DNA of 60,000 nucleotides from Lytechinus pictus (taxonomy: Eukaryota). Each line of letters starts with the position of its first letter. Position 1 is the stretch's first letter. Below the pieces are notes generated by a model. The model ran no database searches and was not told where the DNA came from. It worked only from the letters and a program-made list of their open reading frames with translations. The stretch covers positions 21,950,001 through 22,010,000 of the forward strand of contig NC_087245.1 of NCBI RefSeq assembly GCF_037042905.1, in the 5' to 3' direction. Shown piece by piece: positions 16,786 through 56,607 of this stretch. A program made the translations under genes and the position numbers.

Positions 16786-16900
16786 GGAGTGCACAGAGTC
16801 ATACGTCGGCCGTACGTTTGACGTAAGAAGTACTCAAGGCATTCTCGAGTATCTTGGAATCAAACGTACGCCGTAAGAAAGCTGTAAAATTGAGCTCCAT

Positions 16901-18141: not shown

Positions 18142-18387
18142 GTACTGTTTTACTTGTATGTTCAAGAATTGATAAACAAAGCTGCAAAGTGTTGTGTTTC
18201 CGGGTGTGTTTCTCCTTATTGATACGAGTATCAACCATCTTTTTTTTTCTAACGAACAGACTTCATGAGATTGCAAAATAAAGGCTTTCATCAATTGAAC
18301 ATGCATATCTTGTTACTGATAAATAACTTTATTTTGCTTCTATATTTGTATTTTTAACTTTCAAACTTGATATTTCTTCTTCGGCAG

Positions 18388-19277: not shown

Positions 19278-19445
19278 CACTCTAAAAAACGAAGTGCTAA
19301 TTCAGCTCTTAAAGAGCGTGTATAGTGACTGCACTTCGGAGTGCTGATTTTTTAGTTCAAATTTGAACGAGAAAATCAGCACTCCGAAGTGCAGTCACTA
19401 TACACGCTCATTAAGAGCTAAATTAGCACTCCAGTTTTTAGAGTG
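19278..19445. mobile_element. 168-bp near-perfect palindromic MITE (CACTCT...AGAGTG, TA flanks)
   Basis: Arms pair across the centre ttcaaatttgaa; TA on both sides. Confidence 0.9.
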
Positions 19446-30604: not shown

Positions 30605-30635
<31 letters not shown>

Positions 30636-30638
<3 letters not shown>

Positions 30639-30804
30639 CCGGCAGAGACATTTTTTCGGCATCACCAATTTTTCCAAAGGGTAGATATAGCTCTGGGGAA
30701 CCTTGATTTAAGCTACGCCTACCATTGTTCTCTTCATCAATTTCTTTACAATATTTAAATAAAAGAGTTGCCAAAGCTGTTGTACATGTATAACTTTACA
30801 CATT

Positions 30805-30875
<71 letters not shown>

Positions 30876-30920: not shown

Positions 30921-31402
30921 TATATATATTTATATATATACTGTATATATAAAGCAATTTCAATGAAGAAAAATGACAATGTACCTATCAGTAATATTAT
31001 ACAGGAATAGGACTCCTTGTACATTATTGTGATGCAGAAAATATAAATTAATAAATAAAAAAGCGTGATGTGATGTTTCTTTCTTTCAAATAGCAGATTA
31101 CCTCAGTTGACAGGTCAGAGCTTAAGAAAATTCCCAAAAGGTACTTGAAAAATACCTAAATGGACACAAAATCCGCAAATCTTATAAATCACAATAACTT
31201 CAGAAAAGCTAATTTTTATTGCCCAATACTAGTTCATGTTTGTATGTACATCCTTGTCTGTTCAAATCCTCAATGCTGCACCCAGTAGATAAGCTCCCTG
31301 ATGGCAGACAAGCGAATGAAATTCACTTGGGGAAACCCTACACTCACCCATTTCATTTGGGATACACCATAGTTCAGTCCTCCTCTTTTCACCTTCTCTT
31401 AA

Positions 31403-31966
31403 AGGGATGGTCCGGGCTGAAAGTATTTATAGCTTAATAAATAGAGTAGAATTTACTGAGCAAAATGCCGAAAATTTCATCAAAATCGGATAACAAATAA
31501 CAAAGTTATTGAATTTTAAATTTTAGCAATATTTTGTGATAACAGTCGTCATGAATATTCATTAGGTGGGCTGATGATGTCACATCCCCACTTGTTCTTT
31601 TGTATTTTATTATATGAAATTAGGTTTATTCAAATTATTTCCTCCAAGAACTAGAAAAATTGGATTGACAACTGATTTAGAGCATTATATATTAATTGCT
31701 GCAACTTATTTCATTATAAGGGAGAAGTATTATTCACACAAGTATGAAATAATGAAAAAATTATGATTTTATGTAATAACATGAGAAACCGGTAAGTGGA
31801 GATTTGACATCATCAGCCCACCTAATGAATATTCATGACGACTGTTTTCACAAAATATCGCTAAATTTTAAACTGCAGTAGCTTTATTATTTGTTATCCG
31901 ATTTTGATGAAATTTTCGGCATTTTGTTCAGTGAATTCGACTCTATGTATTAAGCTATAAATCCCT
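31403..31966. mobile_element. Kolobok-like MITE (TTAA TSD, long TIRs)
   Basis: ttaa|agggat ... atccct|ttaa; TIR ~180 bp including aaatttcatcaaaatcggataacaaat; relatives at 34680-35170 and 43655-44178. Confidence 0.8.
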
Positions 31967-34679
31967 TTAAGATAAGGTGAAAATAGAAGGACTTGTGCAT
32001 TGGGTGTATACCATATGCCAGGGATCCGGTCAATGGAACTTCTCAATCAGGCCCGCGAGGCTCAGCTGTTATTTGTCTTTTCAAATCACTTTTTTGTCAC
32101 AGTATGATATTGTGCCCATGCAACCATGATAAAAGTAATGACAGTCAAATTATCTGAAGTTTTACTTTTGAACATAGTTCAGTGAAGTTTCAATTAAGTT
32201 TTTGTATGTTTAGTTCGTTAGAAAGATTAATCGCATAGATACTATCCTGACAGCTGGGTCTGCATACATGCAAAAGTGCAGTTTTACAGTGAACATTTTC
32301 AAGAACTCATACCGGAGCACATTGGCTAAGTCAATGCAAGTTATTTAAACTACATTACATTATTTGTGTCCTTAGTTCCAAATATTTTGCTTTCAAAACT
32401 AACATATAGGTATAATTATGATCAAAACATCCTTTAAAAATACAATTTTCTCTGATTATTATTACTGACTCTCCCAGCATTTTGACAATTTTGTCTTATA
32501 TTGCCTGTGTTTCATATGTATATTTGTTGGATAAAATGATTCTAAAATAAGGGCCAGATTGCACGAGGGGCATCTAGAACCAAGAACTTCAAGCGGGCCC
32601 TGGATCCCGGCCTCAAGGGAATCCGTGCTCATGATGTCCACTCCGCGCAACTTGTTTATTTTTGGAGGTCTCCAACACTTGCGTAAATGGGGGGTGGGGG
32701 GCGCTTGGGGCCATAGCCCCTTAAAATTACACGTCCAAGAAAAAAAGACATGAAATGATTTCAAAGGGGGGGAGTGAATTATGCCATTGAACAATATGTC
32801 AAAGTCTATCCCAAATTATGTTATGTATTCAAAAGGTCAAAATTTTTACTTTTACGTCTGCCACATCTGGTCCCCTCAATTTTGGGGGCCCATTTCGCAA
32901 CTGGTTTTTAGTTCACTCTGGCCATTTCAGATTTTATTATCATTGGAGTCCTTTCCGGCACATTTGAGAACCCCTGTCATATGCAATGGGTGAGTGTAGG
33001 GTTTTCCGATCAAATAACTACCAACATTAGACGGGTACCGGTAATTTGAGGGTGCTGATTCATTCATGACATGCAACGCGAGCGGCCACGCGCGTACTCT
33101 TATTTCGAAGACGCAGCCGCAAGTCATGAATATTCATATTGAGGACCGGAACTACTGTGGGAAAAATAATTTCGCGGGCCGGCCCGGGGCCACCGATTTT
33201 CTAGAATGATGTAACAGGGGTCTAGATGACCGTGGCAAAAGTTACCTTATGTCTTCCAAGTCGTTCCATTGCTGACTGGTACTGCAGATTGTGACCTTTC
33301 TCCTGTATCGATCTGGAGATCATGGAATCATCAGAGCTCCCTAGATACGACCATAGCTGGGTCACATATGGATTAGTCGCTAAAAGAAGTCCTGCATTAA
33401 ATTCAGAGGAATAATTATATTCGTTGTAAGGACTAAAGATCAAATATACTTTTTTAATACATTTCTCTCTAAGCTGCCCCGGTTCTTTCCCCCTTCTTAC
33501 CCCTCTTTCTTTATCTCTTTAACTCCCCCCCCCCTCTCTCTCTCTCTCTCTCCTCCCACTCACTCTCGCCATTTCTCCGCTATTGCTTTCAATTTCAGGT
33601 CAAAGTAATTCTGTAAAATCATAAACATAATGTCTGCATAATTGCGAGAAATTGGAAATTTGATAAAGAAAATTCATTGATAACTACAAAATTATATTTT
33701 CTAACTGATAATGTCGGTTGTGGTGTAAGTATATCTTTCTCCATTTATGATCTGTATGTATACTATTGATCACAGGGATAATTATGTAGGCCCGTACAAA
33801 TTAATGTTTGACCAGATTAAACGAGCGTGAAATTAGTCAATATTATATTCTTCATCTGAACAATAGACGATCTGGGAATCAACAGCTAACTTCCGATGAC
33901 AGCTGTAACCAACATCCTCACTAAAAATAAATCTCGAGCCGGCCAATCAAATTCGTGACACCCCCCCCCCCTCCCCCCCCCCCAAAGTGAATTTTATTGG
34001 CTTCTAATTCTCTATATCATAATTATCGTTGGTGAAAGACTATGATGGGGAAACTATCATTTCCGAGGCGATATAGATGTTGCCATCTTACCGAAGAAGA
34101 GCTGAGGGAATATTGCTTACATACATGTATATACATTTGTATCGCAAAGGAAGTGTGTCTCATTCACTGGCACCAAAAGGTGATTATTTGCTAAAGTAAT
34201 ATCAGAAACGAAAAAGAAAGCGTTTTTTCTCTATGAAAGTTAGAATGATATCAACATCTGAAACTATATAAGTGAATTCAGGCAACGTCAATGTGTTTTC
34301 TTTGGTGTGTGCACTTGTTTGACTTTACCATGCATGGTCAAAGTAATAAGTCCATAATTCTATTGAGCACATACACAGTGGCTGATCCAAGGGGGTGGCA
34401 CATTCGGCCCGTGCCCCCCCCCCCCCCCCACCCCTTGAAACTTTTATTTTAAAAAAGAGGGAAAGGGAGAGGGAATATAGGAATGAGAAATAAGAGAGAA
34501 AGCGAAGGAAAAGAAGGAAGAGGGAGAAAAAGGAAAGGGAAATAGGGAGAACGTGCAGGAAAAGTGCATTAGGTATTACCTCTGTATAATTATATTGTAT
34601 ATCTCTGAAGTGAATGCAGAAATCAAATCAAATCAAATCAAATTAAATTTGATCAAAAGCGGACAAGGAATGACAAAGT

Positions 34680-36954: not shown

Positions 36955-37560
36955 TATCATCACATCACATCAGGTACGGAAATGAAGGACTTCTCCTGTA
37001 GGTTTTCCGGTCTTTACTTCTGGTAATTGACGATTATCTAGATAGTTTAAACTTGTGAGACTTTACGTGCGTTGAGAAATGGAGGTTTTGAATCTTTCCC
37101 CCCACCAAAATTTATCCAACAGATGTTTAAACATTTCCACTGATTTAGCTTCCACTACTTCTGTAGGCAGTTTGTTCCAGTCAGAAATTACTCTTTGACT
37201 GAAAAAAATACTCCTAGGTTCCAGCCGAGATCGTCCTGTGAAAAGCTTGAACTTGTGACCTCTAGTTGCTGAATGGATCGCTGGTGTGAAGAATGTGTCA
37301 CTCGATATCCCAAACTTTCCATTTAACAGTTTGTAAACAGTAATCATTTCTCCTCTTCGTATTCTATAAAACAGCGAGTGAAGGTCTAGTCTCTCTAGGC
37401 GTTGCTCATACGTTAAGCTCTGGAGACCAGGAATCATGCGAGTAGCTCTCCTTTGCACCTTCTCTACTTTTTCTGCATCCATTTTGAATCTCACATGCCA
37501 TAAAATGTGCCCATATTCCAGATGAGGTCGAACCAGAGATACAAACAATAGGAAATGGGT
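36955..37560 (-). mobile_element. 5'-truncated CR1-type LINE (ORF2 C-terminus + 3' UTR)
   Basis: LVRPHLEY, EKVQRRATRMIPGL, TRGHKFKL, FFSQRVISDWNKLP; tail (tgatg)n at 36958-36972. Confidence 0.9.
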
Positions 37561-38071
37561 TTGTGTTGTTACTCTCACAATGCATTTCTTTTTAAGAGCG
37601 ATATTCTCAAGAGACTTAGAACTTGAATGTATAATAAAACATGGCAGGAGATGGGGTTTTCATGACAATGCCACGATACGAGGGAATGTGGCGACAGGGA
37701 GAAAATCTTTGCATTTGTAGCACTTTATGAACTTCCAAATAACATCTGCAAAATCGTTAAATTTCTGAATGAGATACTCAACATGCATATAGGCTGCAAA
37801 AGAATACGACCTATTGATCAATGCCCTAGCTGCATAACACAAAATTCTACACTAGAGTATTGCAGAGTATAGAGTCAAATCATTTTCCATGCTGCTTCTA
37901 TCATGGGGAGGGGGGCAGGGGGCGATCGCCATGGAAATATTGGGGATGTGGCAGGACTTGCCCTGCCCAATTGACAAAATGAAAAATGTATGAATCCATT
38001 ACAAAAATGTGTTTGAAAAACATCTGAAGGTGCTATAAAACCATCAAACTTGACATAACATTAGTATGTTA

Positions 38072-39856: not shown

Positions 39857-40026
39857 GTGTGTGTGTGTGTATTTGAGTTTTTTGTCAGACGTGTATCAAT
39901 CAGATATGATTATTTACGTCTGGGACCGACATTTAACGTCACCATCCGAAAGACGTGACCAAGGCTCGAACCTCTGCATCAACTTCCCCACAGCTTGGAT
40001 TACAGGCGCACGCCACAACGCCCAGG
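39857..40026 (-). mobile_element. SINE with 7SL/Alu-domain-like head, Deu/Nin-like core and (CA)n tail
   Basis: Minus strand CTGGGCGTTGTGGCGTGCGCCTGTAATCCAAGCTGTGGGGAAGTTGATGCAGAGGTTCGAGCC, then GTCTTTCGGATGGTGACGTTAAATGTCGGTCCC, ending ACACACACAC. Confidence 0.72.
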
Positions 40027-40327
40027 GAAAATCCCCTAAATTGGCCTTAGGGTCAGGTGCTTCAGATTATTTTTCCAGCATGCATAGTTGTTTTTATTTT
40101 ATTTTCTTTTTTATATAATTCATCAAATGTATGAACTAAAGAATAGCTTTTGCTGGTTTTACTTCTGCTCTCTCTATATCAATGATCCATAATAAAAAAA
40201 GCACAAAGAATAATAATATTTTTATAATTATTTTTAAACGCTGTTTCGATTTACAATGGAGACTAACTAACCAACCTCGGCTCATCGCGTATCGCATCTC
40301 TGGCACGGCACCTGGCCAACCAACGTC

Positions 40328-40453
40328 ATGCCGAATCAAGGACCACGTAAGCGAAAAGAAAAGGATAAGGACAAATTAAAAGATGATGGCAAGAATATGG
40401 CAAAATCGAAGCAAACGACTGGTTTTTGGGCTGGAAATGATACCATGGAAACA
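40328..40453 (+). CDS. Alpha/beta-hydrolase-fold membrane protein, exon 1
   Basis: MPNQGPRKRKEK...MET; donor ACA|GTAAGT; 126 nt, phase 0. Confidence 0.65.
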
Positions 40454-41149
40454 GTAAGTATTGTGGTCTGTGGAGTACCCGACACCAGTCATTTTCTTGG
40501 CCGGTATCGGTAAATACAGTCCGACATATGCGTAATCATGTCATGTTTTGATAATCATACTCTCTCTCTCTCTCTGTGTTAGGCCTACATTTGTATTTTT
40601 CTTATGGCTTATGCCTAGTAATAGTATTATTGCCATTTATATCAATTGTTATATTTCTTCTATGTCCCCAGGAGGGGCCGCCAAAGAAATAAAGTCATTG
40701 TCAATCATTGTCAGTAGATCTAGACAGCTGGCAGCTGTCTGTTTCGAGGAGTTTTTTAACATTTTTAATTTCTCCTTGTAGTAGGTACACAGACGGCTAT
40801 ATCTATCTATAAATTGTTCTTCAAATGGGCATTTTGTAACATTTTGAAACTCATCAGCTTTCCATTGATACCCTAGAGTAGACCTAGGCCTAGTATTTGT
40901 ACCATTTGCGCCACGCATGACCGAATTAGGAATTGATGTTAAACAAAGTCTAAAGACAACAGGTGCAGGTACCTCTTTTTCCAAGTTTTGGTAATGTGAG
41001 TAAAATGTGCGATTGATATAATAAATTGTTTTTCAAAGTAATTTTTGGAATGAAGTATCAAGCCAGGCTTACATTACTGTGAAATGATTATTGAAAGGTT
41101 GATGTCTTAATTCACCTGCACCTTCAACAATCCTCCGCTTTTTTGGGCT

Positions 41150-41887
41150 TTGCACACAAAACTGGCACCGTGGCTTGGAGTTGGATTTAAGGATATCTTG
41201 GACAGTTTGTCTTACCATTGCCGGATCATTGCACAAAGAGCATCCACCTCTTGTCGAATTTGGCCCTGCAAATCATCAAGATCTTGGGGAGGAGTTGCAA
41301 ACACTTTGTTTTTCAAGTGCCCCCAAACAAAATAATCACAGGGCATGATGAGGTCAGGGGATCTTGGTGGCCATTGTACGTCATGGTTGAGGGCAACAAC
41401 TTGATGTCGATCCAAAGAGTTCTCTAAGTGAGTAAGTCTATCTCGAACAACGTTGGAAGGATGGACAGGAGTGCTGTCCTGAATCCACCAAAGATGCAGG
41501 TACACTCCTCGAACCTGTCTCTCAAAATGTTGTTCTAATGTGGTACAATCTCCTCATTAATCATTTGCAAGTAGGCCTACATTCGCCCATTTACACTCCT
41601 TTGGAAGAAAAAAGGTCCAATCAAAAGATTTTTGCCAGCTCAGAGTATCGTAAAGTACTTACATCAGCATCTACCCTTTCATCAAGTTTTCAAAAACTTG
41701 GAAAAAGTGATATCTGCACCTGTTGTCTTCAACATCAATTAATTCTGTCATGCGTGGCACAAATAGGGTATAAATGGAAAGCTGATGGGTTACTCTGTCA
41801 CATCCATACAGAATAATTTCACAAAATTAAATATGATTTGAATATCAGCCCTCTAGATTTGGATTACTTTTTTTCTGAAATGCACTG
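41150..41887 (-). pseudogene. Degraded Tc1/mariner-superfamily transposase with one TIR
   Basis: WIQD..PVH, WPPRSPDL.PCDYFVWGHLKNKVF; terminus TA|cagtgcatttcagaaaaaa on the minus strand at 41887. Confidence 0.85.
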
Positions 41888-41924
41888 TAGTATAGGCCAC
41901 TCCTTTCATGAACAAGGTTATGAT

Positions 41925-42466
41925 CCCGGGGGGGGCACTCGACCAAAAAAGTGGTAGGGGTGTGCCGCGGGCGAGGCAAAAAACGGGGGCCTTGGAGCGG
42001 GCTTATTGTAAAAAGGAGGGTCCTCGGAACGGGCTTCGGAACTACAAATGTTTGTGAAAACGGGGGTCCTCGGAACGGATCTCCGTATCTCTGTGAGTGC
42101 GTATGCATCCCTATGGAACGGGCAATCGTGCATGACGCAGCTAGCGCGGCCTCCACCGGGTGCGCTCGCGCTTAGGCGATGGTCGAAAAGCGCTCTACGG
42201 CCGCTTTTCACCAAAATTGCAGCTCCTTGTAGCAGATCAATGCGACCGGAACGGCGTAACGAAAAATATGCGAAGCTTTGAAACGGATTTCTTTCTTCTT
42301 TTTTCTCGATAAGAAGGAAATGCTATGCCTTGGAGCGGCTTTCTTTGTTCTTTTTCTCAAAAAGACAAAAATGCTATGCCTTGGAACGGATATTTGAGTG
42401 TAAAAATGGGGGTCCCCTCCGCGGCACATACCCACTATGCATTATATACTGAGTGCCCCCCCCGGG
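41925..42466. mobile_element. MITE with cccgggG(n)cactc TIRs, copy 2
   Basis: Homologous to 16901-17418; exact 8-bp duplication gttatgat. Confidence 0.9.
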
Positions 42467-42928
42467 GTTATGATATGTCATAGGCCTACATATTTATTTT
42501 TTTTTTTTTTAAACAGTGTTGTCAGTTAGTATTGCAATATTTTAAAGAGCCATTCCACACTGAGTTTTAAGTAACGTTAGACTCTAAAAGTAAGTTTTTT
42601 TATAAAATTAAAAAATGAATCATGATGCGCTGACTGCTGTGATATGACCTGTGTTTTCATGGATTTTTTTGCTGTCCACGATACCCCTGCCACCCCTCTT
42701 CCTGACCCTGCCAATACAAGTCGATCTAATGCATCTGTAATTTTGTCTGAAGGAGCGCAGCAATGGACATCTCTACTTTGATCAATGAATAGGCTAAGCT
42801 TAGTCCTTCAACTTGTTGCCTTAGTTGGAGTAAAGTAAAGTAGACCGATGTAAGTCTATTTCATAGCCTTTAACCACTCTACCATGAGCAGTTTATGGCA
42901 GTAAGATGTAGAAATCACATTATATTAA

Positions 42929-43090
42929 TGGCGCAGTCACATTCCCCCTATGGCAGCCGTATGACGAGTCGAAAACAGCCGTTTTAACATTATATGTACC
43001 AGCTACATATAGGTGGTTTGAATGAAAATTAATAAAACAACTGTTTTCGACTCGCTGTATGGCTGCCGGAGGGGAAATGTGACTGCAGCA
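42929..43090. mobile_element. Palindromic Harbinger-like MITE (TAA flanks)
   Basis: gcagtcacattcccc...gagtcgaaaacag / ctgttttcgactc...ggggaaatgtgactgc. Confidence 0.78.
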
Positions 43091-43130
43091 TAAACTGAAC
43101 ATAATGACTACCTGTTCATCCCATTAACAG

Positions 43131-43311
43131 GAAATTGATTCAAGAGGTAGTAGACCTCAGAATGAACCATCTGGTGAAAGACGGTCTCTTCTGAGAGATT
43201 GTTTCTGTCGCTGTCTACATTCATTGAAGTGGGTCGTGTTCTTACTAGTCCTACCAGCGATTCTTAACCATGCATCTCTATACAAGGAAGCAGAATACCT
43301 GAGACCAAAAG
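43131..43311 (+). CDS. Alpha/beta-hydrolase gene, exon 2 (TM anchor WVVFLLVLPAIL)
   Basis: TTAACAG acceptor, G|GTGAGA donor; 181 nt, phase 0 to 1. Confidence 0.8.
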
Positions 43312-43397
43312 GTGAGAAATTGATGACGGACATTTCATGAATTGTCTTGACAGTGATTTTCACTGACAACTATTATTATATGCTACCTAATGGACAT

Positions 43398-43622
43398 TTC
43401 GTCGCCTTCCCGCACAAAGGCCGTTAGCGCGCACTGCTCGTCGCCTTCCTGCACAAAGGCTGTAATTGCGCACAACACGTCGCCTTCCCGCGGAAGGGAC
43501 GTTATGGTGCAGTGAACAGTACGCGCTAACGACTTTTGTGCAGGAAGACGACACGCAGTCCGCTAACTCCCCTTTCACGGGAAAGCGACGCGCTAACGGC
43601 ATTTGTGCAGGAAGGCGACGAT
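43398..43622. repeat. Foldback repeat of cgtcgccttccYgcacaaa units
   Basis: Three direct units, then inverted tttgtgcaggaaggcgacg units. Confidence 0.75.
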
Positions 43623-43654
43623 TTGAATAAAAAGAGGAAAATCCAACAAGCATA

Positions 43655-44178
43655 ACACTGAAATTTCATCAAAATCGGATATAAAATAAGAAAGTTATGA
43701 CATTTTTAAATTTTGCTTAATTTCACAAAACAGTTATATGCACATCCTGGTTGGTATGCAAATGAGGAGACTGATGATGTTATCCACTCACTATTTCTTT
43801 TGTATTTTATTTTATGGAATATTCAAATTTTCTCATTGTCATGTGAAACAACAATTAATTCCTCCCTGAACATGTGAAATTAGCATTGTTTAATACTACA
43901 TGGTTCAGTCAAGTTGGTCCTTATTGTCAAATCTGTGAAATAATTAGATATTTTTTAATTCAAACAATAAACAACAAAAGAAATAGTGAGGGACATCATC
44001 GACTGGCCTATTTGCATGTCACTGAGTTGTGCATATCACTGTTTTGTGAAACTCTAAAATTTCATAACTTTCTTATTTTACATTTACATTCGATTTTGAT
44101 GAAATTTTCAGCGTTATGCTAGTTTGATTTTTCTCTATAGATATTCAAATCAAAATTTTTCTGTTGTGGACTTGACCT
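43655..44178. mobile_element. Kolobok-like MITE relative, left-truncated
   Basis: aaatttcatcaaaatcgg / cgattttgatgaaatttt; ends gacct|ttaa. Confidence 0.7.
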
Positions 44179-44433
44179 TTAAGTCGTTCATATGTTTTGT
44201 CTGAAATTCAATTAGTCATATCAAATAAACAAGAACAACATGAAACACTTATTGGGTATTAAAATGTAAGGAAGGATGGGACAGCATGTCATAAAACCTC
44301 TTGACATTGATTTGCGCATTACAATGTTATTGCATGTGGTTGGCTGTGAACAATGATTTCATAATTTGAAAAATTGATATTAACTTACAAGGGCTCTATT
44401 CTAACCTTTCTTTGATCTTTCTTTTGGTTCTAG

Positions 44434-44505
44434 GTGAATTATTATCTGTAGGCTTAGAAGATCACAAAATGTTCATCACATGTTCAGGGGAAGGAGAACC
44501 CACAG
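44434..44505 (+). CDS. Alpha/beta-hydrolase gene, exon 3 (GELLSVG...MFITCSGEGEPT)
   Basis: AG/GT bounded, 72 nt, phase 1 to 1. Confidence 0.88.
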
Positions 44506-44727
44506 GTAAGAGAATTGTTTAGTGAGCTATAAGGGTTGTTTTACAATCAGGGTATACCTATCTGTCGCAATGGCCTAATAAAAAAAAGTTTCCTTGTTGA
44601 CCATAGTAGATTGCGAGACAAATGAATACCCTCTAGCGATTATTTCATTCCGCAATAATGAACCTATTTAGTATTTTAAAAAAAGTTGTTTTGTTTTTCT
44701 TGATATTTTATATTTTTTATGTGTTAT

Positions 44728-45000
44728 GTGTCGTGGTCTAGTGGTTGTAACTCTTGTCTTTCATTGTGAGGGACGTTGGTTCAATTCCTAGCCATGGCGT
44801 GTTTTTCTTCAGCAAGAAATTTACCCACACTGTGCTGCACTTAAGTACCCGGTAGGAAGAAATTCCTTGAATGCTTGAGCGCCTAGGTAGCCAAGCTAAA
44901 GGTGGGGTAATGATAATATTAGCAGGGCCTGGGAGAACAGTTTTCAGAATTGAAGTGGCTAACCTGGGTAAATATACGGTTATTATTATTATTATTATTA
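44728..45000 (+). mobile_element. tRNA-derived SINE, CORE-like middle, (ATT)n tail
   Basis: A box tggtctagtgg, B box ggttcaattcc, cttcagcaagaaatttaccc core. Confidence 0.8.
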
Positions 45001-45159
45001 CAAACCGGTGAAATTTTATTTCTTTTAAAATTGTAAGGCATTAGGTCACCCACTTACTGTTTTATAATAATTAAAGTTGCTTATATAACTCTTACACTTA
45101 CTTTATCAGAAGTCCCTAAACACTCTACAGTAATTGAGCATAAATGTAATAGATGAAAA

Positions 45160-45412
45160 AATCCATATTTTATTGTTCGAAATAGACATGAAATGAAATA
45201 CTCTCAAAATTTGCTTTGCTCAATTGATCGTGGGCACGGCAGCCGCTGTGCAGTGCCAGATCGATGAGGCTCTATCCCTTTAATCGTTGAACGGCAAACA
45301 GGGTAGCAGCAACTCCAATATTTTAACGTATTTTGGTCTGATGCAGCCGGGGTTTGAACCTCGACCTCCCGGTTGTGAGACGGACGCTCTACCAACTGAG
45401 CCAACACATCGG
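45160..45412 (-). mobile_element. tRNA-derived SINE with Meta-domain-like core
   Basis: Minus strand tggctcagttggtagagcg...ggttcaaacccc, then accaaaatacgttaaaatattggagttgctgctaccctg. Confidence 0.75.
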
Positions 45413-45802
45413 TAATAGGGTCTTTTAGTTACGTGTTCTGTAACTTGGTTAATTTTTTTTTGGACAGAAGCTGTGTTCACAACATTGGAAAGTGGACTGC
45501 TTGAAAAATAAGTGGATGTAGCATGTGGGGCAAAGTAAACATATTTGTTAAATATTGCTTTTAGTGAAAAAAACCTTATTAATCAAGTCTGTGTAATAAT
45601 GAATAAGACTAATGCTATTGAATTAGCACAAGGATTTACACTGCAGCTAGGAACTGGTCAGATCTTGAAACATAAATGTATCTGTGGTCTAAAATTGACC
45701 TATCAGTTGCAAACTTACAATTGAAATTGATAATTGTAAGTATTTATTCGTCCATAAATGGAAATTTGTCTTGTTTAAATATATGCCGTGCAAAAACCAA
45801 AT

Positions 45803-46080
45803 AAAATAATAATAATAGTAGGCATTTGTATGGCACCATTTATCTAGAAACAATCTATTCGGATGTGCATTGTTATTATTATTGTTACCCCGGCTCTAGC
45901 TCGAGCTGCCTTTTAGCACTCGTGCATTCAAGGAATTAATCCTGCCGGGTACCCATTCGCCTCACCTGGGTCGGGAGTGTAGCTCAGTGTGGAAAATTTT
46001 TGTACTGAATGAAAACATGCCATGGATAGGATACGAACCCACTACCCTCTGTTCGAAAGGCGAGAGTCAGAACCACTAGA
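45803..46080 (-). mobile_element. tRNA-derived CORE-like SINE, alternative tail
   Basis: Minus strand tctagtggttctgactctcgcctttc...gggttcgtatcc...gacccaggtgaggcgaatgggtacccggcagg; (ATT)n end. Confidence 0.78.
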
Positions 46081-46376
46081 ACATCAAATTATATAAAATT
46101 GTAAACATATAACAATACATTCTACATTTACGCAATGATAATAAACATATGATTACTTATATACAGTCATTTGCAAATGAACCTCCTGCATGACCCTACA
46201 CTGATGTACCAATTTTGATCAAATGCCAAGGAGGTGACAGTTCTTTCTGATTTTCCTCATAACACATTCCATGAATTCTGCTAATCTAAGGTGTTGATTG
46301 ATGATATTGCAAATAGAAACTCATCAAGTGCTGGCACTATGCTTATAATTATATTAGTCTCAATTTTGTTTCATAG

Positions 46377-46453
46377 TGATTCTAGATGCCCCTACTGGTA
46401 TGTCATCAGATGTTTGGTGTCTGGTCCAGCCAAGAATAGCAAAGTTTACACGA
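46377..46453 (+). CDS. Alpha/beta-hydrolase gene, exon 4 (VILDAPTGMSSDVW...FTR)
   Basis: AG/GT bounded, 77 nt, phase 1 to 0. Confidence 0.88.
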
Positions 46454-46824
46454 GTAAGTAAATGTCGTTTAAATTATGTGAATACCTGAAAGGGGAATAA
46501 CAGCAGTCTGTGTTACTGTCTACTAGGAGGTATGCATGTCCTTGAAAAAAATCCACAAGAACAGTGGTTAAGATCTGAGTAATTGAATCATAGTTTATGA
46601 TAAAATATCACATGAATACTTCCAGAGTCAGACTATGTTACTACTATCTTATGATTTATTATTGATGTCCATGCCCTACCAAAGGACATTAGCTGCTGGT
46701 CTACTTATGATTTGAACCTCAGATCTTGTTAAAATACCAGTGCTTCATCAATGTATCTGTTCATCCTACCCTTAATCCTATTCGTAATTCATCTATTCTC
46801 TTGTTTTATTTGATTGATTTTCAG

Positions 46825-46878
46825 GTTTGTTCATATGATAGAACTGCATTGGGATTTAGCTCTCCATACCCGTATCAG
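46825..46878 (+). CDS. Alpha/beta-hydrolase gene, exon 5 (VCSYDRTALGFS)
   Basis: Resembles the family YDRxGxGxS motif; 54 nt, phase 0 to 0. Confidence 0.88.
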
Positions 46879-47329
46879 GTTGGTTACGTATCAATCAATT
46901 AATCAATTTTAAAGGGAACTCCTTCCTGATGTCAGGTTGGGATGTGCCATCATGTGTATTCTGTGGTAGTAATGTGATATGAAAATGGCCCAGGATTTTC
47001 AACTGAGGTGATTTAGAATTGAAGTGTATGTAGGGTTAAAAGTAACTGTTTTCATTTGATTCAATTTGACCCTTTTCAGCAACATTAATCCAGAAAGGAA
47101 TCCGCTATATATTGTGTTTACCTCGACAAGTTTCATTATTTTCATATTCATCCAATTTACGCGCCCCTTTCAGGTGCCCAAAACTGACTCCTTGTTAATT
47201 GTATTATAAATTTCAATTGATTATCTGAAAAATGTTAGTGATGACTCCATTTTTCCAAGAGATATTTTGGTTGAAGATATATTCCTTGTAAAAAAACGAC
47301 AGTGTGTTGATTGAAGTATTGCTTTTCAG

Positions 47330-47415
47330 TTTCCAGAAAATGATGATACTCCTGGTCCCATATCAAGCAAAATGGCAAGCAGGATTACCAAAGGACAAGA
47401 AAGTACAACAGAGAG
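47330..47415 (+). CDS. Alpha/beta-hydrolase gene, exon 6
   Basis: TTTTCAG acceptor, AG|GTAAAA donor; 86 nt, phase 0 to 2. Confidence 0.78.
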
Positions 47416-47447
47416 GTAAAACAATGAGGGGGGATGTCAGGAGGATG

Positions 47448-47755
47448 TAAGAAGAAGGAGAAGGGGAGAAGAAGAAGGAAAGAAAAAGGAGGAGGAGAAG
47501 AAAAAGATGGTAGAGAAGAAGGAAGAAAAGAAGGAGAAGAAGAAGGGAGAGAAGAAGAAAGAAGATAAAGGAGGAGAAAAAAGGAGAGGAAGAAGGTAGA
47601 GAAGAAGAAGGAGGAGGAAAAGAAGGAGAAGGGAGAGAAGAAGAACAAGGAGGAGGAGAAAAAGAAGGAAAAAAGGAGGAGGAGAAGAAGATGGTAGAGA
47701 AGAAGAAGAAGGAGGAGAAGAGGAAGGAAGAAGGAGTGGAAGCAGAGGAGGAACT
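47448..47755. repeat. Purine-rich (GAA/GGA)n low-complexity tract
   Basis: Direct reading; lies in intron 6. Confidence 0.92.
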
Positions 47756-48035
47756 GAGTACACTTGCATTCAACAAATATCAATATGGTTAATGGGGACG
47801 GGATGAGGCAGATGCATCAACAATCAGTTACAGAATACAAATACATTACAGGGAGAATGTATGGTGTTTGGACATTTTTAATCAACTTTAATCGATCTTG
47901 ACAAGTACTTATCACATGGTACATGCGTGTAATGATGATGTAATAATTTATTTCGGTTACGATTGTTGTTGGTATTATGTAAATACATCAAGTATACATG
48001 TATCCTATAAACACCTTCAATATTTTCTTATACAG

Positions 48036-48158
48036 GATGGTGGATGACCTACACTCCTTGCTTCACATCAACTATACATACACCAAGCCGCCATTTATTA
48101 TTGTGGGGTCAGAATTAGGAGCCACAAATGCCATGTTTTATGCACAGATGTTTGAAAA
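48036..48158 (+). CDS. Alpha/beta-hydrolase gene, exon 7 (MVDDLHSLL...PFIIVGSELGA)
   Basis: Nucleophile-elbow region; 123 nt, phase 2 to 2. Confidence 0.9.
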
Positions 48159-48900
48159 GTAAGATCATTTCTACATGCTGTGACAAATGGGTGTTTTACT
48201 GGCATAATTTAAATGGATAATAATGGGATATTCATTTTTTTTTTGGGGGGGTCAAGTGTCAACCAGGCAAGGTGCTCAATGCACTTCAACTTGACTGAAT
48301 ATCAACTCATGTCCTGTTGTATGAGGACATACAATCAACAGCATGATCGATGCAAATAGTAGATCTAAATTCATACCATATAATAAAGAGTTAGTGTTGA
48401 TCATCACATTCAATATTCATTGGGAAAATTGAAGTTCAGTGCTGGTGTTGGTGTTTTGAGTTACATGCCTAATCTAGCCCAACACATCATGTGGGTTTGG
48501 TGTTGATGTCGGTGTTAGTGACAGTATTAATAAGACTGCATAACCTAGCTCCAACAAATCATGTGGGTTTGGTCTTTGTGTTAACAGTATTAGTAAGGTT
48601 GCCTGACCTGACTCCAACACCTAGAGAGGGTGTACAAAACTCATGCCAATTAGAACCAACACCTAGTGATGTCAGTCCCAGCACCAACCTTATTCCAAGT
48701 TGGTGCTGTGTATAGTTCAAAACGGAGTCAAACACCAACAGCTGTCAACACCCAAATTGATTTAAATGCTGTTCTGTAACAGGGTGAAATATGTATTAGG
48801 TTGAATTTTCTAGTGCTGACCGAATTCAAAGAATTCCATTCAGTTTTAATACCTTTCTAAGGAACCATGGTACCACTGGGTCTTGGGCCAAAAACCCTCT

Positions 48901-49065
48901 GGGAGCGTTTCATGAAAGTTGTCAGCACTGACAAGTTGGCTTTCTCCGACAGTTACCATAGTAACAGTCAGAGGCAAGTGCTCACAGCCAATCAAAACCA
49001 AGGATTTCACTGAAATTGTCAGCACCGACAATTTAGTCAGTGCTGACAACTTTCATGAAGCGCCC
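48901..49065. mobile_element. Short Harbinger-like MITE
   Basis: gggagcgtttcatgaaagttgtcagcactgac / gtcagtgctgacaactttcatgaagcgccc. Confidence 0.75.
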
Positions 49066-49173
49066 CCTCTACAGTCCATCAATATATCCAGACACACCAC
49101 CATTTTTTAAAATCATAATGTAGTGTTATTTATGTACATCCAATGTTGTATGCCTGTCTATGGACAACACTTA

Positions 49174-49484
49174 GGCCCGTATTCTGAAGTCAGGTTTAAC
49201 TTAAACTCAGGTTTAAAGTTGTGGTTTAAGTATGGGAAGCCAAAAGTGTCAAAATTTTTATTGAGTTATATTTTTCTTATGTTTACTGTGCTCTTTTCTG
49301 AGTCATCGATGGTGAAGACAATCATCTATTTATACTTCCTACACAATTATGAATGATTTGAGAGCCAAATGAGCTGAAATATGATACCTCTATTGTTAGT
49401 GATTTATGTAACAATTTGCTATCCATACTTAAACCACAACTTTAAACCTGAGTTTAAGTTAAACCTGACTTCAGAATACGGGCC
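49174..49484. mobile_element. Harbinger-like MITE, ~60-bp perfect TIRs, TSD TTA
   Basis: ggcccgtattctgaagtcagg... / ...cctgacttcagaatacgggcc. Confidence 0.9.
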
Positions 49485-49599
49485 TTAGTCTTTACTCACT
49501 TTTTACACATGATGAAAATGTACAGTTTCAATGATAACAGTAGGATAGGACTAGCCAATATAAAGTTTTCTTGCTTTTATTACTTTCTTTACCCTCCAG

Positions 49600-49680
49600 A
49601 GAAGTAAGTGATGTAGTTCTTATAGATCCTCTTGTTGAGGGCATCTTTGAAATTGATGATGCAGTCTTAGAGCAATTCTG
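49600..49680 (+). CDS. Alpha/beta-hydrolase gene, exon 8 (EVSDVVLIDP)
   Basis: AG/GT bounded, 81 nt, phase 2 to 2. Confidence 0.88.
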
Positions 49681-50162
49681 GTGAGTTCAATGTTCCAAAT
49701 AAGATATTTTTAGAGTACAGATTGTATGGTAGCAACTTGGCAAGGTTTGGTATTAAATTGTGTAAAGTATTCAGCTTAAACACATAGTTGCATACATGCC
49801 AACCAGTAATATTTCATCAGGTTTACTCTGTTTCTAGTTTAATTTAAAAAAATAGATTCTCTGTCATAAGTAATGTTTTTATTCATGTTTATTCAAAGAA
49901 GCATTTTACTTTCAGTTTCCCTATTTGAAATATAAATAGTTCAAAGTCTGTCTAAAGCTTTAGAAAAGGTTCAGTAATGTGAATTATATTGGAGTAATAT
50001 CCAACATTCAATCTTGCAAATGAGGGGTATCCATAAAATAATTGCTTTTCCCTTGATTCTTTGTGAAAATTTGAATTGTATATATAAGTGTTTGGATATT
50101 GAGTGAAGAACTTCTTTCTGTAAAAATGGCTTTTGGAACCAACATTAATTAGTGATTATATA

Positions 50163-52259
50163 CACAACAAAAAAAGTAAGTCCCCCCTTCAACAAACATC
50201 AATAATTTCTGAACCAATGCGAGTTTTTAATATATTTTTACATTAGCGTGTAGGTAATTTTATAAGCTACCCTCTGAGTAAACGTTATGGACGTATTTCA
50301 CTTCATGCTTCAGTGAGCACCGTCAGAAGGCAAAAATGTCACTTCAAAAGTCACAAGCCAAATATCATGACTTTGATTCCATTTTATTGGAACTAATTCC
50401 ACATTCTCATCATAAAAACTAGTCAGAAGGCTTGTAAGAGGTACTTTCTAAAAGACGATACAACTTTTTGGGCTAAATTTCACGGTTGAATAAACACAAG
50501 TACAAATTTGCTATAATTGGATTTTTTTACACATTTATATCAATAAAAATGATAGAATATGATGACAGTTAGTTTTGGAAGAGTTTCTTCAACAATATTC
50601 ATCGTTTCACGGTTCAATGAACATTTATTGAAAAAAAAAATATGATTTTCAAATATCATAGGCAAGTATTGGTTCATTTTGGGAACTGAAAATGATATTT
50701 TCTCAACTTTTTCGTTATGTTCATGACCAATTAACTTGCTTCAATGATTCAAAGGCGTTTAATTACATATCCATGCTTGAATGAACATGTGAAATGCGAT
50801 TAGCTCTTTTTTACGTTATTGGAAAAAATGCAATTTGTTACTATGGATATCTGTCACAAACCTACTTGCATAGTTCATTTGATTTGATTTTTATGAAAAT
50901 CCCGATGTTTAATGCATCAGTGAGCACACAATATTAGAAAATTATGCAAATGAGAAGAAAGTTCAAGGCCTTGGCCCCACTCTGTGTCGTATCGAATGGT
51001 TATTTTGATGTGCGCGCCTTTTGGATAGTGTTACTCTGAAGCCATGTACGAAGTTTCATGAAATAACTATTGGCAGAAGTAACAAAAACCGTCCATGAAA
51101 CAAACTCTCATTTCATATTTGTTAAAATTTTGACTTCGTCTCTCATAGACTTGTGTACATTATGGGTGCACATGTTTAAGAATAAGTAACCCCTTATTCA
51201 ATATGGTGGAACTTTTTTTCACGGCTGTCTTTAGCAATGTCATTTGGCAGTAATGTTTATCAACCTATGGGCAGAATTCTGTGCAAAAATGAAATCGATT
51301 TAATTATTTATGGATGAGTGAGCACGCATCAAAGTGGGAAAATTGGTATTTTCAATGTCACAGACTCATTTTAAAGGGTAATAAAGTGAATATTGGGGGC
51401 CAATACGGTTTCAAATAAGACTTTAATTACTATTGTTTTTATCATCCATCATTTCTATCACCACACACTTTCCGAACTTTAAACATTTTCATGGTTGAGC
51501 GAGCACATTCGAAAACTTAGGAATGAATACTCTTTATACTGCATACAGTAAATGTATTATTTTCCTAACAATTTTTCATGATCAGTTTAATTTATGGACA
51601 AATCAGTGGTGGGTCCATAATTTTTAAATGGGGGAGGGGCCTATAATCGGGGGAGCCACCAACATTTTCAAATTTTAACATGATCTAACAAGTTGTAGAG
51701 GATACTACCATAAACCCCTATGATGATACGTCACAATACAGGGGCCGGGGAAGGGTTTTCAAAGTGGGGGGGGGGCTGACCATGCAAAAAATCACAATCG
51801 TATTGTCATTTTTACATTTTTGTACATGCTTTTGAAAAAAAAAAGTAAAAGGGAGGGGGCTGAAGCTCCCCGCCCAGCCCCCCCCCCCCCCCCCCCGCTT
51901 CCACGGCCCCTGCAATACACTTTGCTCACTCAACCATGAACATATTATATCAAAATTGTGTGTGGAGTGGCTAAATGATGGATAGTAAAACAGCATAACA
52001 CCATAAAATTCACCTAAAGACAACATTTGCCCTATTTTGTATTTGCACAATCTGAAAAACGACTCTTGTGACTTTCAAAAATTGTCATTTTTAATTCAAT
52101 CTTTAATTACTCATGCATGACTCAACCGATCAATCTTATTTTTCCCCAGGAGTTGCTTAATGAGTGTAGAAAACCACCTACGGAATGTCATATCTCAAAA
52201 TAATTCCGTTCAAAAGTTACAGCAATTTGATTTAGGGGGGACTTACTTTTTTTGTTGTG
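50163..52259. mobile_element. 2.1-kb non-autonomous TIR element with TA flanks; nested GC-rich MITE at 51739-51912
   Basis: cacaacaaaaaaagtaagtcccccc / ggggggacttactttttttgttgtg; nested caggggccg...cggcccctg flanked by caata. Confidence 0.82.
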
Positions 52260-52749
52260 TATATATCAGAAAGGTGCAATTAAAGCCAAAGATTATATTC
52301 TGTAATGTGCAGCCTAGGCCTATTTCATTCTAGAGAAAGTGTTTACCAAATAAGAAAAACTTGAATTTTTTTTGAAAGATTTGGGTGTGATCCATTAAAA
52401 ATATTTTTTCATGTAAAACTGCAAAATACATTTTCCGAAAGAAGACTTTTTCGCTTCATGCAATTGTAGGTCATACGCATTCATAAATTCATGTCAAAAT
52501 AAACCAAATAATGAGACACTCTTGGGTGATTCACCAAAACTTAAGAGGGGATTATAATCATATCATGAATTAATACATAAGCTATAATGAATTTATCTTA
52601 TTTCTATTGATTTTTAATGCTGTACTAATGATATATTTGCCCAATGTCCATGGACCCTCCAAATCATATCTTGAATGGGTGTAACACTCTATGACAATAT
52701 AATTTTAAATTCAAAGGCTTATGAATTTATTTTGCGTATTTAAATGAAG

Positions 52750-52888
52750 GTATGGTCATCTGGTGCCCACTCTTCAGTCTTTGCAGCTCTCAGCTGCTAT
52801 TGGTCTAACCAGGCTAGGATTGATGCTTGGCCTGGTAGAGCAGCCAATCAAAGGAGAGGTTATATCAGAAGAAGTCAATGCTAGACAA
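52750..52888 (+). CDS. Alpha/beta-hydrolase gene, exon 9 (AAIGLTRLG, cap region)
   Basis: 139 nt, phase 2 to 0; donor CAA|GTAAGT. Confidence 0.82.
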
Positions 52889-53034
52889 GTAAGTTAATAT
52901 TCAATACTGTCTTAACTATGACAGTGATGTAGATTATGCTGTTCAACCACTTTGTATTCACAAGCACATGCTTGCTGATACATGTACTTGAATAAGTTAG
53001 GAGTGTCAATGACGGTCTGTCTCGTCAATACATT

Positions 53035-53350
53035 GGCCCGTATTCTGAAGTCGGGTTTAACTTAGACCACGGTCTAACTCTGTGGTAAAATTATGGGGAG
53101 CCAAAAGTTCAAAAAATTTGTTTATATTGTATATTTCTTATGTTTAGTATTTAATTTCCTTTTGCTTTCATAATGAAGAAAAATACTTCAAAATACTTCA
53201 GTTATCATTCCCAGACAATCTGGGTGTCATATGAGTTAATAAATTGGATACATGTGCACTCTTCGGGATTTGTGCCCCAATTGGCTCTCCATAGTTAAAC
53301 CACAACTTTAAACCAGGGTTTAATTTAAACCCGAGTTCAGAATACGGGCC
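53035..53350. mobile_element. Harbinger-like MITE, same family as 49174-49484
   Basis: ggcccgtattctgaa / ttcagaatacgggcc. Confidence 0.85.
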
Positions 53351-54500
53351 ATAGAGTTTTAAATGGCAAAAGATATATGTGTGAAATGACTAATCAGTAA
53401 ATGTTTGCAATGTTTTGAAGCTGATCTCAGCAATATTGCCCTTCATTACCAATTACTTTTGTCAATTACAATTTCAATTACTTTCTAGAAAAGTCATAAA
53501 TTAAATATTCTGTACATAGTACCACCTATTTCAGCATAATTCCAAGTTACAGAGATACCGACTAGATGAAGGTTTAGGTTAAAAAGCACGGATTCTGCCT
53601 GTTACTCTCTTTGATGCTGAAGCATTTGACACACGAAAAAGGTCTTTAAATTAAATCATAAATTCATTAAGTTTATTGTAAAGTAATTGAATGTAATGAC
53701 AAGTAATTGACAGTAGTTGAAGTCAATTACATTTTTTTCCAATTACAATTACTTTCCCTTTCAAAACTTCAATTACAATTACTCAAAAAAATGTAATTAA
53801 TTGCGTAATTGATCAATTACATTGTATTGAGCCCAACCCTGGCCCTTAGTTCTTCTTTACTCAGCTCCTTCTCTGATAAGTTGTGCAAGCGCTTGTTCAT
53901 TTTTTTTTAATTGAGCGTGTTGATGAAATATGACTCTTATTCATGTTTTTGATCATCTTCTAGTATACAACCAAAGGATGTAAACAAATCGCAGACCCCT
54001 AAAACGCGTTAATTTCCACAAACAGCTTTACAGGTGCATACCACAACATCAAGTTTTGGCATGTTAATGGTGAACCATTTTATTCGTAACCATTCAATTA
54101 TTGCTTTCAGGTACTAGCACATTCACTTGGTTTGGGACTCGGGGGTTATCACAATGCAAGACTATTTTTCTATCAAGACTAATGCTCTATTTTGAAAACA
54201 AATATCTAAACTGTTCATGAGAGTTGTATCTAGGACTCGTGCAAATGGTTTGTCAAAGAGACTCTGTGTTTCTTATTACTCACGATGTTGGTCCTCTGTA
54301 GGGATTTATTCTACTCTAAATACTGACTGAACAACAAAAAATTTTGCAGTGATTATAACCATCTGAAACCTGAATGAGAGTTGTTATAGGTCAATGCCAC
54401 TGAGAAGTCATTTAGTTCTGCAGCAGCGTGGGTCGTTTGATCAATGTAGTCTTGTAAATTAAATTCTCCTTAACATTTCTTCCTCAATTTTTTGTCGCAG

Positions 54501-54583
54501 AAATATTTAATGTGCTTGCCAAGGCATATCAGAGGAGCCGTGGAAGAATATTTTTGGGCCAACCAAAGTTTATCTCAAATAAA
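54501..54583 (+). CDS. Alpha/beta-hydrolase gene, exon 10
   Basis: TTTTGTCGCAG acceptor, GTGAGT donor; 83 nt, phase 0 to 2. Confidence 0.82.
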
Positions 54584-55333
54584 GTGAGTACTGGGTCCCG
54601 TAAGTTTAGCGTTTATCGTACGCTTGATTTTCACGATTGATTGTACATTGTAGTCAATGGAATCATCGTAGATAAATGTTCTATGATCATTGCCAAGCTT
54701 ATTGTTATGGGCCACTGATGCAAAATATATACTCCATAAAAGATATGGGAATATACCCACAGCGGTTCTTAAACAAATTGAACTGTACTACAGGTGTATG
54801 ATTTGTTTTCTCTTTTTCCCTATCTCATTTTCTAATGGTTGTATTATTGATCTATACAAATAAAATAAAAAATTCACCGTAAGTTTTTTATTTGCCAATA
54901 AAAACTTTTGTTGCAATTTCATTATACTTGTCTGCTGACATATGCTTTCTTCAATTTGTAATTTGAATCAGGTATTTTTTACATTTTGGGGGGTGATAAC
55001 TGGGATCTCCAAATTTTATTAGAAGTTGTGAACAAATAAAATGTTGATCAGTATATTCTTTTCAGGCATTTATTCTCTTGTAATGAAGAAAATCCAGTTT
55101 GTAATTCTGTTTTGTTTTCCATAAATGTTTGCAACAGGTATGTTATCAAATTCATTACATGTGTGTAGCATCATCAGTTTCTCAGCCTATTTACCATGTA
55201 GTATTTGTTTCAATCATGTTGATAGGTTTGGTAACCTTAACAAATTCTGGGTGTATGATTATTGCAGAAAACCATTATTAGATAATTTCCAACAGATTTT
55301 TATCCTCTACTTTCACACTGTCTTTGTCTTTAG

Positions 55334-55430
55334 AACTGCATACACAGTAAAGCCTTTTCCAAAGAATGTATCTGTTACTGTGATAACTGGCAATTATTAT
55401 GATGAAGAACTACCAAGTCAATTAAATAAG
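55334..55430 (+). CDS. Alpha/beta-hydrolase gene, exon 11 (VSVTVITG); no stop seen, gene likely continues past the window
   Basis: 97 nt, phase 2 to 0; donor AAG|GTAAGT; 11 exons total 1119 nt = 373 aa without a stop. Confidence 0.82.
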
Positions 55431-55611
55431 GTAAGTCCCTGAAAAAGACAATATCAATGAATATGATCTAATGTACCTACTTAGAGGTCAATGTATATAG
55501 ATGATTATGAAAGTGTGTCTCAAATTTCAGATTTTCAAAATAGTTAGGGGTATACAGTTAATGACAATTTCGGTCACTCTGTAAATTGAAATACATAATG
55601 TTGGTGTGGGG

Positions 55612-55663
55612 TTTTTTTGTCTCACCTGCATAGCAGAGTGAGACTATAGGCGCCGCTTTTCCG

Positions 55664-55700
<37 letters not shown>

Positions 55701-56607
55701 CGGCGGCGGCGGCGGCGGCGTCAACACCAAATCTTAACCTGAGGTTAAGTTTTTGAAATGACAGCATAACTTAGAAAGTATATGGACCTAGTTCATGAAA
55801 CTTGGCCATAAGGTTAATCAAGTATTACTGAACATCCTGCCTGAGTTTCATGTCACATGACCAAGGTCAAAGGTCATTTAGGGTCAATGAACTTAGACCA
55901 TGTTGGGGGAATCAACATCAAAATCTTAACCTAAGGTTAAGTTTTTGAAATGTCATCATAACTTAGAAAATATATGGACCTAGTTCATGAAACTTATACA
56001 TAAGGTTAATCAAGTATCACTGAACATCCTGCATGAGTTTCACGTCACATGACCAAGGTCAAAGGTCATTTAGGGTCAATGAACTTTGGCCGAATTGGGG
56101 GTATCTGTTGAATTACCATCATAACTTTGAAAGTTTATGGATCTGATTCATGAAACTTGGACATAATAGTAATCAAGTATTACTGAACATCCTGTGCAAG
56201 TTTCAGGTCACATGATCAAGGTCAAAGGTCATTTAAGGTCAATGAACTTTGGCCAAATTGGGGTATTTGTTGAATTACAGCCATAAATTTGAAAGTGTGT
56301 TGGTCTAGTTCATAAAACTTGGACATAATAGTAATCAAGTATCACTGAACATCCTGTGCGAGTTTCAGGTCACATGATCAAGGTCAAAGGTCATGTAAGG
56401 TCAAAGAACTTTGGCCACGTTGGAGGTATTTGTTGAATTGCCATCATATCTCTATAAGTGTATTGGTCTAGTTCTTAAAACGTGGAAATAAGAGTAACCA
56501 AGTATCACTGAACATCTTGTGCGAGTTATAGTAGTTTTCAAAATCAGCACTGCTGCTATATTGAATCGCGTGATGCAGGTGAGACGGCCAGAGGCATTCC
56601 ACTTGTT
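55612..56607 (+). mobile_element. Intact Helentron-associated element (HINE/DINE-like)
   Basis: T run, subterminal IR gtctcacctgcat with local IR gtgagac, (GGC)n, about five ~170-180-bp tandem units, 3' atgcaggtgagac, ending cttgttt. Confidence 0.8.

Follow-up and report, generated by a model that had tools for sequence, protein, structure and literature searches.

The window analysed here is the whole 60-kb stretch of genomic DNA from the sea urchin Lytechinus pictus. On its minus strand, at positions 39857-40026, lies a 170-nt element in which the four parts named by a first-pass annotation of the letters are all present: a head resembling the 5′ domain of 7SL/Alu RNA, a B box, a Deu/Nin-like stretch and a (CA)n tail. 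Statements attributed to published papers hold for the passages of those papers that we drew on. The features, from the 5′ to the 3′ end of the element, are as follows.

39977-40026, minus strand: head like the 5′ Alu domain of 7SL (SRP) RNA, model positions 1-49, with the three-way junction and helices 3 and 4 (Rfam RF00017 alignment)
40013-40022, minus strand: box A position inside the 7SL-like head, agreeing by eye with human 7SL box A at 8 of 10 positions (PMC7245038); putative promoter function
40000-40004, minus strand: U-turn (UGUNR) motif, model positions 23-27, as in the Rfam consensus; putative SRP9/14 contact (PMC11581171)
39973-39976, minus strand: short linker, 8 codons (~24 nt) shorter than that of P0009, the closest other record (tblastn and alignment)
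39960-39972, minus strand: tRNA-type B box, with the junction that leads into the body, read from the sequence; 11 of 17 positions shared with the tRNA-headed relative L001
39922-39959, minus strand: first ~37 nt of a Deu (Nin/Inv-related) SINE domain, 28 of 37 by eye to AmnSINE1 (PMC7245038, Fig. S4), with a similar stretch in BivaMD-SINE1
39886-39922, minus strand: 3′ stem-loop of 13 bp in two stems (z -3.5); candidate recognition element of a partner LINE
39857-39885, minus strand: A-rich spacer and (CA)7 tail, read from the sequence, the CA repeat occupying 39870-39857; L001 has the same tail type

The B box begins 40 nt past the box A position, at 39972. No T4 run occurs in the body, and the first one lies 145 nt downstream of the element. 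Being shorter than 1 kb and interspersed, with head, body and tail, the element has the layout that SINEBase uses for SINEs (PMC3531059), and its body adjoins unrelated flanks, two pairs among 12 compared flanks scoring ≥30. The 60-kb window holds no second full copy. A target-site duplication, which the annotation had proposed to look for, was not found above chance at the one copy examined: the best flank match (7 of 8) is not flush with the ends and is equalled by 127 of 200 random flank pairs, and was rejected as a chance match. Folded as a whole, the element performs no better than its shuffles (z 0.10). A word search of sequencing runs returned six runs, each with a fraction of 0.05-0.06 of the element's words, and no RNA run among those listed; it counts as no evidence.

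The annotation had taken the host for an invertebrate, which is borne out by a three-exon moody-like GPCR gene of L. pictus at 15584-18720 (+), to whose three exons the L. pictus protein P0001 maps with 430 of 432 residues. The exon at 15584-16000 agrees with P0001 at 99%, with L. variegatus at 90% and with S. purpuratus at 77%. Across the whole window, Rfam at gathering level yields two tRNA-like matches only, both away from the element. A tRNA-headed SINE copy at 45410 to ~45150 (-), in which the sequence after the head resembles the printed Meta-domain consensus, is likely a MetaSINE of the SINE2-1_SP/SINE2-2_SP kind. Another tRNA-headed repeat, at 4438-4619 (+; Rfam tRNA 53.8 bits), is joined to a palindromic element; it has related copies at 4074-4251 and 30635-30808 and is unrelated to the body of the 7SL-headed element. 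Palindromic MITE-like repeats are numerous (for example at 1126-1472, 3887-4235, 19276-19447, 31376-31993 and 43620-44151) and account for the plant and animal miRNA-model matches in the rest of the window.

The 7SL-like head

Between positions 39700 and 40200, five Rfam matches are obtained at E≤10. The best of them is Metazoa_SRP at 39950-40026 (-), with 30 bits and E 4.7e-6, as computed for 501 bases and 4227 families. Since the gathering score of this model is 70, the head goes unreported when the whole window is scanned at gathering level. The alignment pairs model positions 1-49 with 40026-39977, with 37 of 49 consensus letters shared (76%, counted by eye), 12 of them in an unbroken run across the U-turn; the U-turn motif itself is identical to the Rfam consensus. 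Of the 14 pairs in the 5′ domain, twelve pass without being flagged as broken, while the other two are marked as non-standard, one of them in the middle of helix 3. The alignment then skips 244 model positions, and the last six fall on the Deu start. These six positions do not represent the 3′ end of 7SL, because the tRNA-headed relative L001 has the same Deu start; on this alignment the element appears to contain the 5′ ~49 nt of 7SL only, and the 3′ end is absent. The weakly matching, Alu-like mir-1268 model (E 0.65) was also obtained in the element region, and the likeness to Alu ends after 49 nt.

This Infernal-type search agrees with the annotation, according to which the head follows the 7SL/Alu 5′ domain. 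Its reading would have fallen with a head closer to tRNA than to 7SL, yet none of the five Rfam matches at E≤10 is a tRNA, and ARAGORN calls none in the head. As a control, the remainder of the window (1-39940 and 40100-60000) was examined at E≤1: of its 57 matches, none belongs to Metazoa_SRP. A 7SL rather than a tRNA origin of the head is thus supported by the RF00017 match (E 4.7e-6) together with the lack of a tRNA match, which places the element with SINE1, the class with a 7SL-derived head. The SINEBase head rule asks for ≥60% identity to tRNA, 5S or 7SL over ≥60 nt (PMC3531059), and the 76% found here extends over 49 positions only; a composite 7SL/tRNA head is poorly covered by this identity rule.

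Body, tail and recurrence of the join

The B box that the annotation had placed after the head starts at 39972 (-) and likely derives from a tRNA parent, not from 7SL. What follows, at 39959-39922, matches the AmnSINE1 row of Kojima 2020 (PMC7245038, Fig. S4) by eye in 28 of 37 columns. This likeness is confined to the beginning of the Deu domain, roughly a quarter of its 131-142 nt, and the remainder was not recognised. The annotation's Deu/Nin label is fair, Nin and Inv being variants or parts of Deu (PMC5786205). With a Deu start like that of AmnSINE1 and BivaMD-SINE1, the body is probably of a non-Alu, Deu type, as annotated. By eye, the sequence after the head bears no likeness to the printed consensus of the Meta domain, the 66-bp stretch that characterizes MetaSINEs.

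A poly(A) tail is absent and its place is taken by a stem-loop and (CA)7, the latter at 39870-39857 (-), where the annotation had read a (CA)n tail. Compared with 200 shuffles, the stem-loop at 39922-39886 folds better than 199 (z -3.5) and its counterpart in L001 better than all 200 (z -4.3). The sole change between the two within the tail stem-loop lies in the terminal loop. Although all 26 paired tail positions are unchanged, this is not significant given six differences in 84 columns.

The annotation had also suggested a search for a LINE sharing the 3′ end; within the window, none with a matching tail was found. A tail-like stretch of 40 nt at 13128-13167 (+) aligns with the tail in 34 of 44 columns (E 0.001), is followed by short A/C repeats and folds weakly into a similar stem-loop. 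This stretch may belong to a related SINE or to the partner LINE, whose 3′ end it would form; upstream of it no RT-like frame was found, the longest open stretch being 66 codons. Two open frames, at 2608-3699 (+) and 37063-37659 (-), which resemble the RT/GIY-YIG end of a Penelope-type element and the RT end of a CR1-type element, respectively, have 3′ ends that do not match the SINE tail.

Scanning DNA collections with body or tail patterns returned a single locus in six collection scans, the marine metagenome contig L001 (0 and 1 loci in metagenomes, 0 and 0 in species genomes, 0 and 0 in viral contigs). L001 carries the same Deu start, stem-loop and CA tail, with 78 of 84 columns identical to the window element. 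From the B box to the Deu start 11 of 17 positions agree, whereas immediately upstream of the B box only 3 of 17 do. There, L001 has a tRNA-type box A-like motif, interrupted by a palindromic insertion: a MITE-like element of ~360 nt, at ~1-362 of L001, has inserted at TA inside the tRNA-type head. The designation 'tRNA head' rests on the box A-like and box B motifs, the visible part of the head being that on the 3′ side of the insertion, and neither ARAGORN nor Rfam calls a tRNA on this remnant. On the nine-residue module that marks the head of the window element, an antisense reading of that head, the L001 head scores 2 of 9. By these comparisons, the window element and L001 appear to share everything from the B box onward and to differ in the head.

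Further copies were sought through an antisense open frame of the body (39858-39986, 43 residues, head excluded), a usable query because gene callers would record this open frame in other copies. A phmmer search of 1.84 billion representatives gave 13 matches at E≤0.001. In nine of them this body is read again, on ENA contigs 0.6-16 kb long; the others (P0008, P0012, P0016 and P0018; 30-41% identity, tblastn E≥0.02 or no match) were discarded as unrelated. The same frame gave no candidate in a word-indexed protein search. A body-only search from P0010 added five records, bringing the body-bearing ENA records to 14; these supporting records are known as translations of spurious reading frames, not as DNA.

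The head module is present at 9 of 9 residues in four of the 14 (P0009, P0010, P0011 and P0021), and reaches at most 3 of 9 in the remaining ten. Several of these ten frames end or shift before the head (for example P0020, P0023 and P0025), so that the missing module is no proof of another head. The alignment of P0009 (tblastn, 46 of 64 columns) spans the whole element, includes a linker 8 codons longer than that of the window, and ends where the head ends. P0010, P0011 and P0021 have a second linker type (type B) in common; P0010 and P0021 also share a flank and may be one locus. At the level of protein frames, head and body are thus found together in four of 14 other records, a uniform chimeric structure rather than a plain 7SL retrocopy, and the join appears to recur in at least three other contexts and two linker types, or subfamilies. 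The annotation had regarded a single-copy sequence as evidence against its reading; a second copy is indeed absent from the window, but the join is not confined to this locus. The idea that the junction of type B records is closer to L001 than to the window failed, with 7 of 9 residues shared with the window element and 6 of 9 with L001 in a frame of comparison shifted by one residue. P0014 and P0015 carry the same body behind a third type of junction, without the head module, and are possibly further SINE families with the same Deu start and tail.

Proposed origin and comparison with known SINEs

We are confident that the element is one copy of a 7SL-headed SINE family. What the sequences show is the order of its modules, a relative in which this body and tail follow a tRNA-type head, and the recurring head-body join. 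Because L001 has a tRNA-type head on the same body and four of 14 records hold the same 7SL-like head, a sea urchin SINE family likely arose as an older SINE of Deu type exchanged the front of its tRNA head for the 5′ Alu domain of 7SL. The independent origin proposed in the annotation, a 7SL head placed on a Deu-type body, fits such a swap.

In our model, a LINE reverse transcriptase would have switched templates, passing from a tRNA-Deu SINE's RNA to 7SL RNA, just 5′ of the B box; chimera formation between 7SL and a tRNA SINE is also the model for the hagfish element (PMC7245038). RNA polymerase III would then transcribe the product from a hybrid promoter, its 7SL-derived box A and tRNA-derived box B being separated by 40 nt, and the transcript would read on to a T-run in the flank (first T4 145 nt downstream). 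The 49-nt head is predicted to fold, to bind SRP9/14 and to carry the RNA to ribosomes. A LINE protein would recognise the 3′ stem-loop and CA tail and copy the RNA into new sites. The new head would hence serve twice, as half of a promoter and as an SRP9/14-binding module. The putative SRP9/14 step is inferred from minimal-Alu work in HeLa cells, in which SRP9/14 is bound by a 46-nt 5′ Alu domain on its own, and this piece attains ~86% of Alu retrotransposition (PMC11760393); the U-turn is the SRP9/14 contact in 7SL and Alu (PMC11581171). The 46-nt domain needs an outside B box or promoter (PMC11760393), and the tRNA part of the element would supply the B box that it is without. We lean towards this whole account, a 7SL head swap acting through an SRP9/14-binding step, with only modest confidence.

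In a serious rival to the SRP9/14 step, which we consider possible though somewhat improbable, the family is the same but the head donated a box A only, SRP9/14 plays no part and a stringent LINE reads the 3′ stem-loop directly. It stays serious because the HeLa assay used L1 and poly(A) tails, whereas the sea urchin element has a CA tail, and because one mismatch of the head lies in helix 3. Two flagged pairs in the head, the lack of a 7SL 3′ strand that could close a full Alu domain, and the same body and tail in L001, which comes without any Alu domain, all fit a mere promoter role, as does a structured tail of the kind recognised by non-mammalian LINEs (PMC7245038); on Deu-SINEs, moreover, 5S heads took over from tRNA heads as promoters (PMC4758252). 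Against it, the captured 7SL piece approximates the 46-nt unit sufficient for SRP9/14 binding and far exceeds what a box A needs, and the U-turn region falls in the part of the head where both linker types retain 9 of 9 residues.

The remaining alternatives deny the family or the 7SL origin of the head. A one-off chimeric retrocopy of a 7SL fragment and a SINE would be in keeping with the single copy in the window and the target-site duplication not found there; we judge it very unlikely in view of the same join in four of 14 other body-bearing records, with two linker types and in at least three contexts. Box A regions are similar between tRNA and 7SL, and the SRP score lies under the gathering threshold with a tRNA-type B box coming next, so that the head could be imagined as a diverged tRNA 5′ half resembling 7SL by chance. 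The E value of 4.7e-6 without a tRNA match at E≤10, the 12 consecutive consensus letters over the U-turn, the absence of SRP from the 57 other matches in the window and the score of 2 of 9 for the L001 tRNA head make this reading even less credible. We give least credence of all to human Alu contamination or an assembly chimera, which the Alu-like head and the weak mir-1268 match might suggest: the likeness to Alu extends over 49 nt and no further, L001 has the same body and tail, an L. pictus gene is encoded in the window, and in independent ENA contigs the join is found again with identical head residues. The annotation had already argued from the non-Alu body against contamination, and these data bear it out.

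A SINE called an 'Alu element' was reportedly found in amphioxus in 2006. Later papers on 7SL SINEs do not count it in the passages concerned (PMC7245038, PMC10886601, PMC13023118), where 7SL-derived SINEs are those of Euarchontoglires, hagfish and shrew mole only, all with both 7SL ends. The annotation's statement that such SINEs come mainly from Euarchontoglires and hagfish holds for these two groups, and has to be extended by Urop of the shrew mole (PMC13023118). The words 'sea urchin', 'echinoderm', 'invertebrate' and 'amphioxus' do not occur in that 2026 paper (PMC13023118), and our literature search, which covered few subscription papers and allows for an entry in Repbase or Dfam, found no 7SL SINE of a sea urchin or other invertebrate. 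Sea urchin SINEs named in the relevant passages of PMC4824008, PMC4758252, PMC3531059 and PMC3899998 are of SINE2 or CORE types, and no 7SL-headed Deu-SINE figures in the portions of the Deu-SINE literature consulted (PMC7245038, PMC4824008, PMC4758252).

Tentatively, and at somewhat less than even chances, we propose that this is the first invertebrate family of 7SL-derived SINEs and a fourth independent origin: a 5′ Alu domain of ~46-49 nt on a tRNA B box and Deu body, with at least two subfamilies, possibly in several sea urchin species, and nature's version of the engineered minimal Alu domain. The three reported 7SL-SINE lineages are all vertebrate and all keep both 7SL ends (PMC13023118, 2026), two generalisations that a sea urchin family with the 5′ domain only would break. 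In such a family the promoter role of the 7SL piece would be separated from its SRP9/14 binding, and a natural control is available in the relative that has a tRNA-type head on this body and tail. If this reading is true, SINEs mobilised by a stringent, non-L1 LINE would also profit from ribosome capture through SRP9/14. The wider question is whether such capture generally promotes the success of SINEs or is a peculiarity of Alu and L1.

Among known systems, Alu, B1 and Tu of Euarchontoglires and Urop of the shrew mole (PMC13023118) have the 5′ Alu domain, box A and U-turn in common with the sea urchin element. In these SINEs a central deletion of ~183 nt joins both 7SL ends, and they have poly(A) and use L1 (PMC13023118); the sea urchin element, in contrast, has no 7SL 3′ end, no poly(A) and a Deu-type body. 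It works like a SINE1, yet has neither the joined 7SL ends nor the poly(A) tail and for this reason stands outside the Alu/B1/Urop/Ebu1-1 structural type, in which a central deletion joins both ends of 7SL. It is best filed as a 7SL-5′-domain head on a tRNA/Deu SINE. The hagfish SINE1-1_EBu (Ebu1-1, Eptatretus burgeri; PMC7245038) likewise has a 7SL head on an older tRNA-derived SINE, and resembles the sea urchin element in its microsatellite tail and its likely mobilisation by a non-L1 LINE via a LINE-type tail. Ebu1-1, however, retains nt 1-96 as well as the 3′ end of 7SL, takes both promoter boxes from 7SL and has a bipartite RTE tail, whereas the sea urchin element has ~49 nt without the 3′ end, a B box from the tRNA side and a piece of Deu. 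In Deu-SINEs (AmnSINE1, EbuSINE1/2 and BivaMD-SINE1; PMC7245038, Fig. S4, PMC4824008) the Deu start follows the B box as it does here, and replacement of the head by another small RNA, 5S, is known in this group and parallels the proposed 7SL swap; unlike the Deu-SINEs compared, the sea urchin element keeps about a quarter of the Deu domain. The engineered SA46/AY46 minimal Alu domain (PMC11760393) has nearly the same 5′ 7SL piece, again without the 3′ strand. Whereas that construct is artificial, driven by an outside promoter and assayed in HeLa cells, the sea urchin element would be a natural version of it with an internal hybrid promoter.
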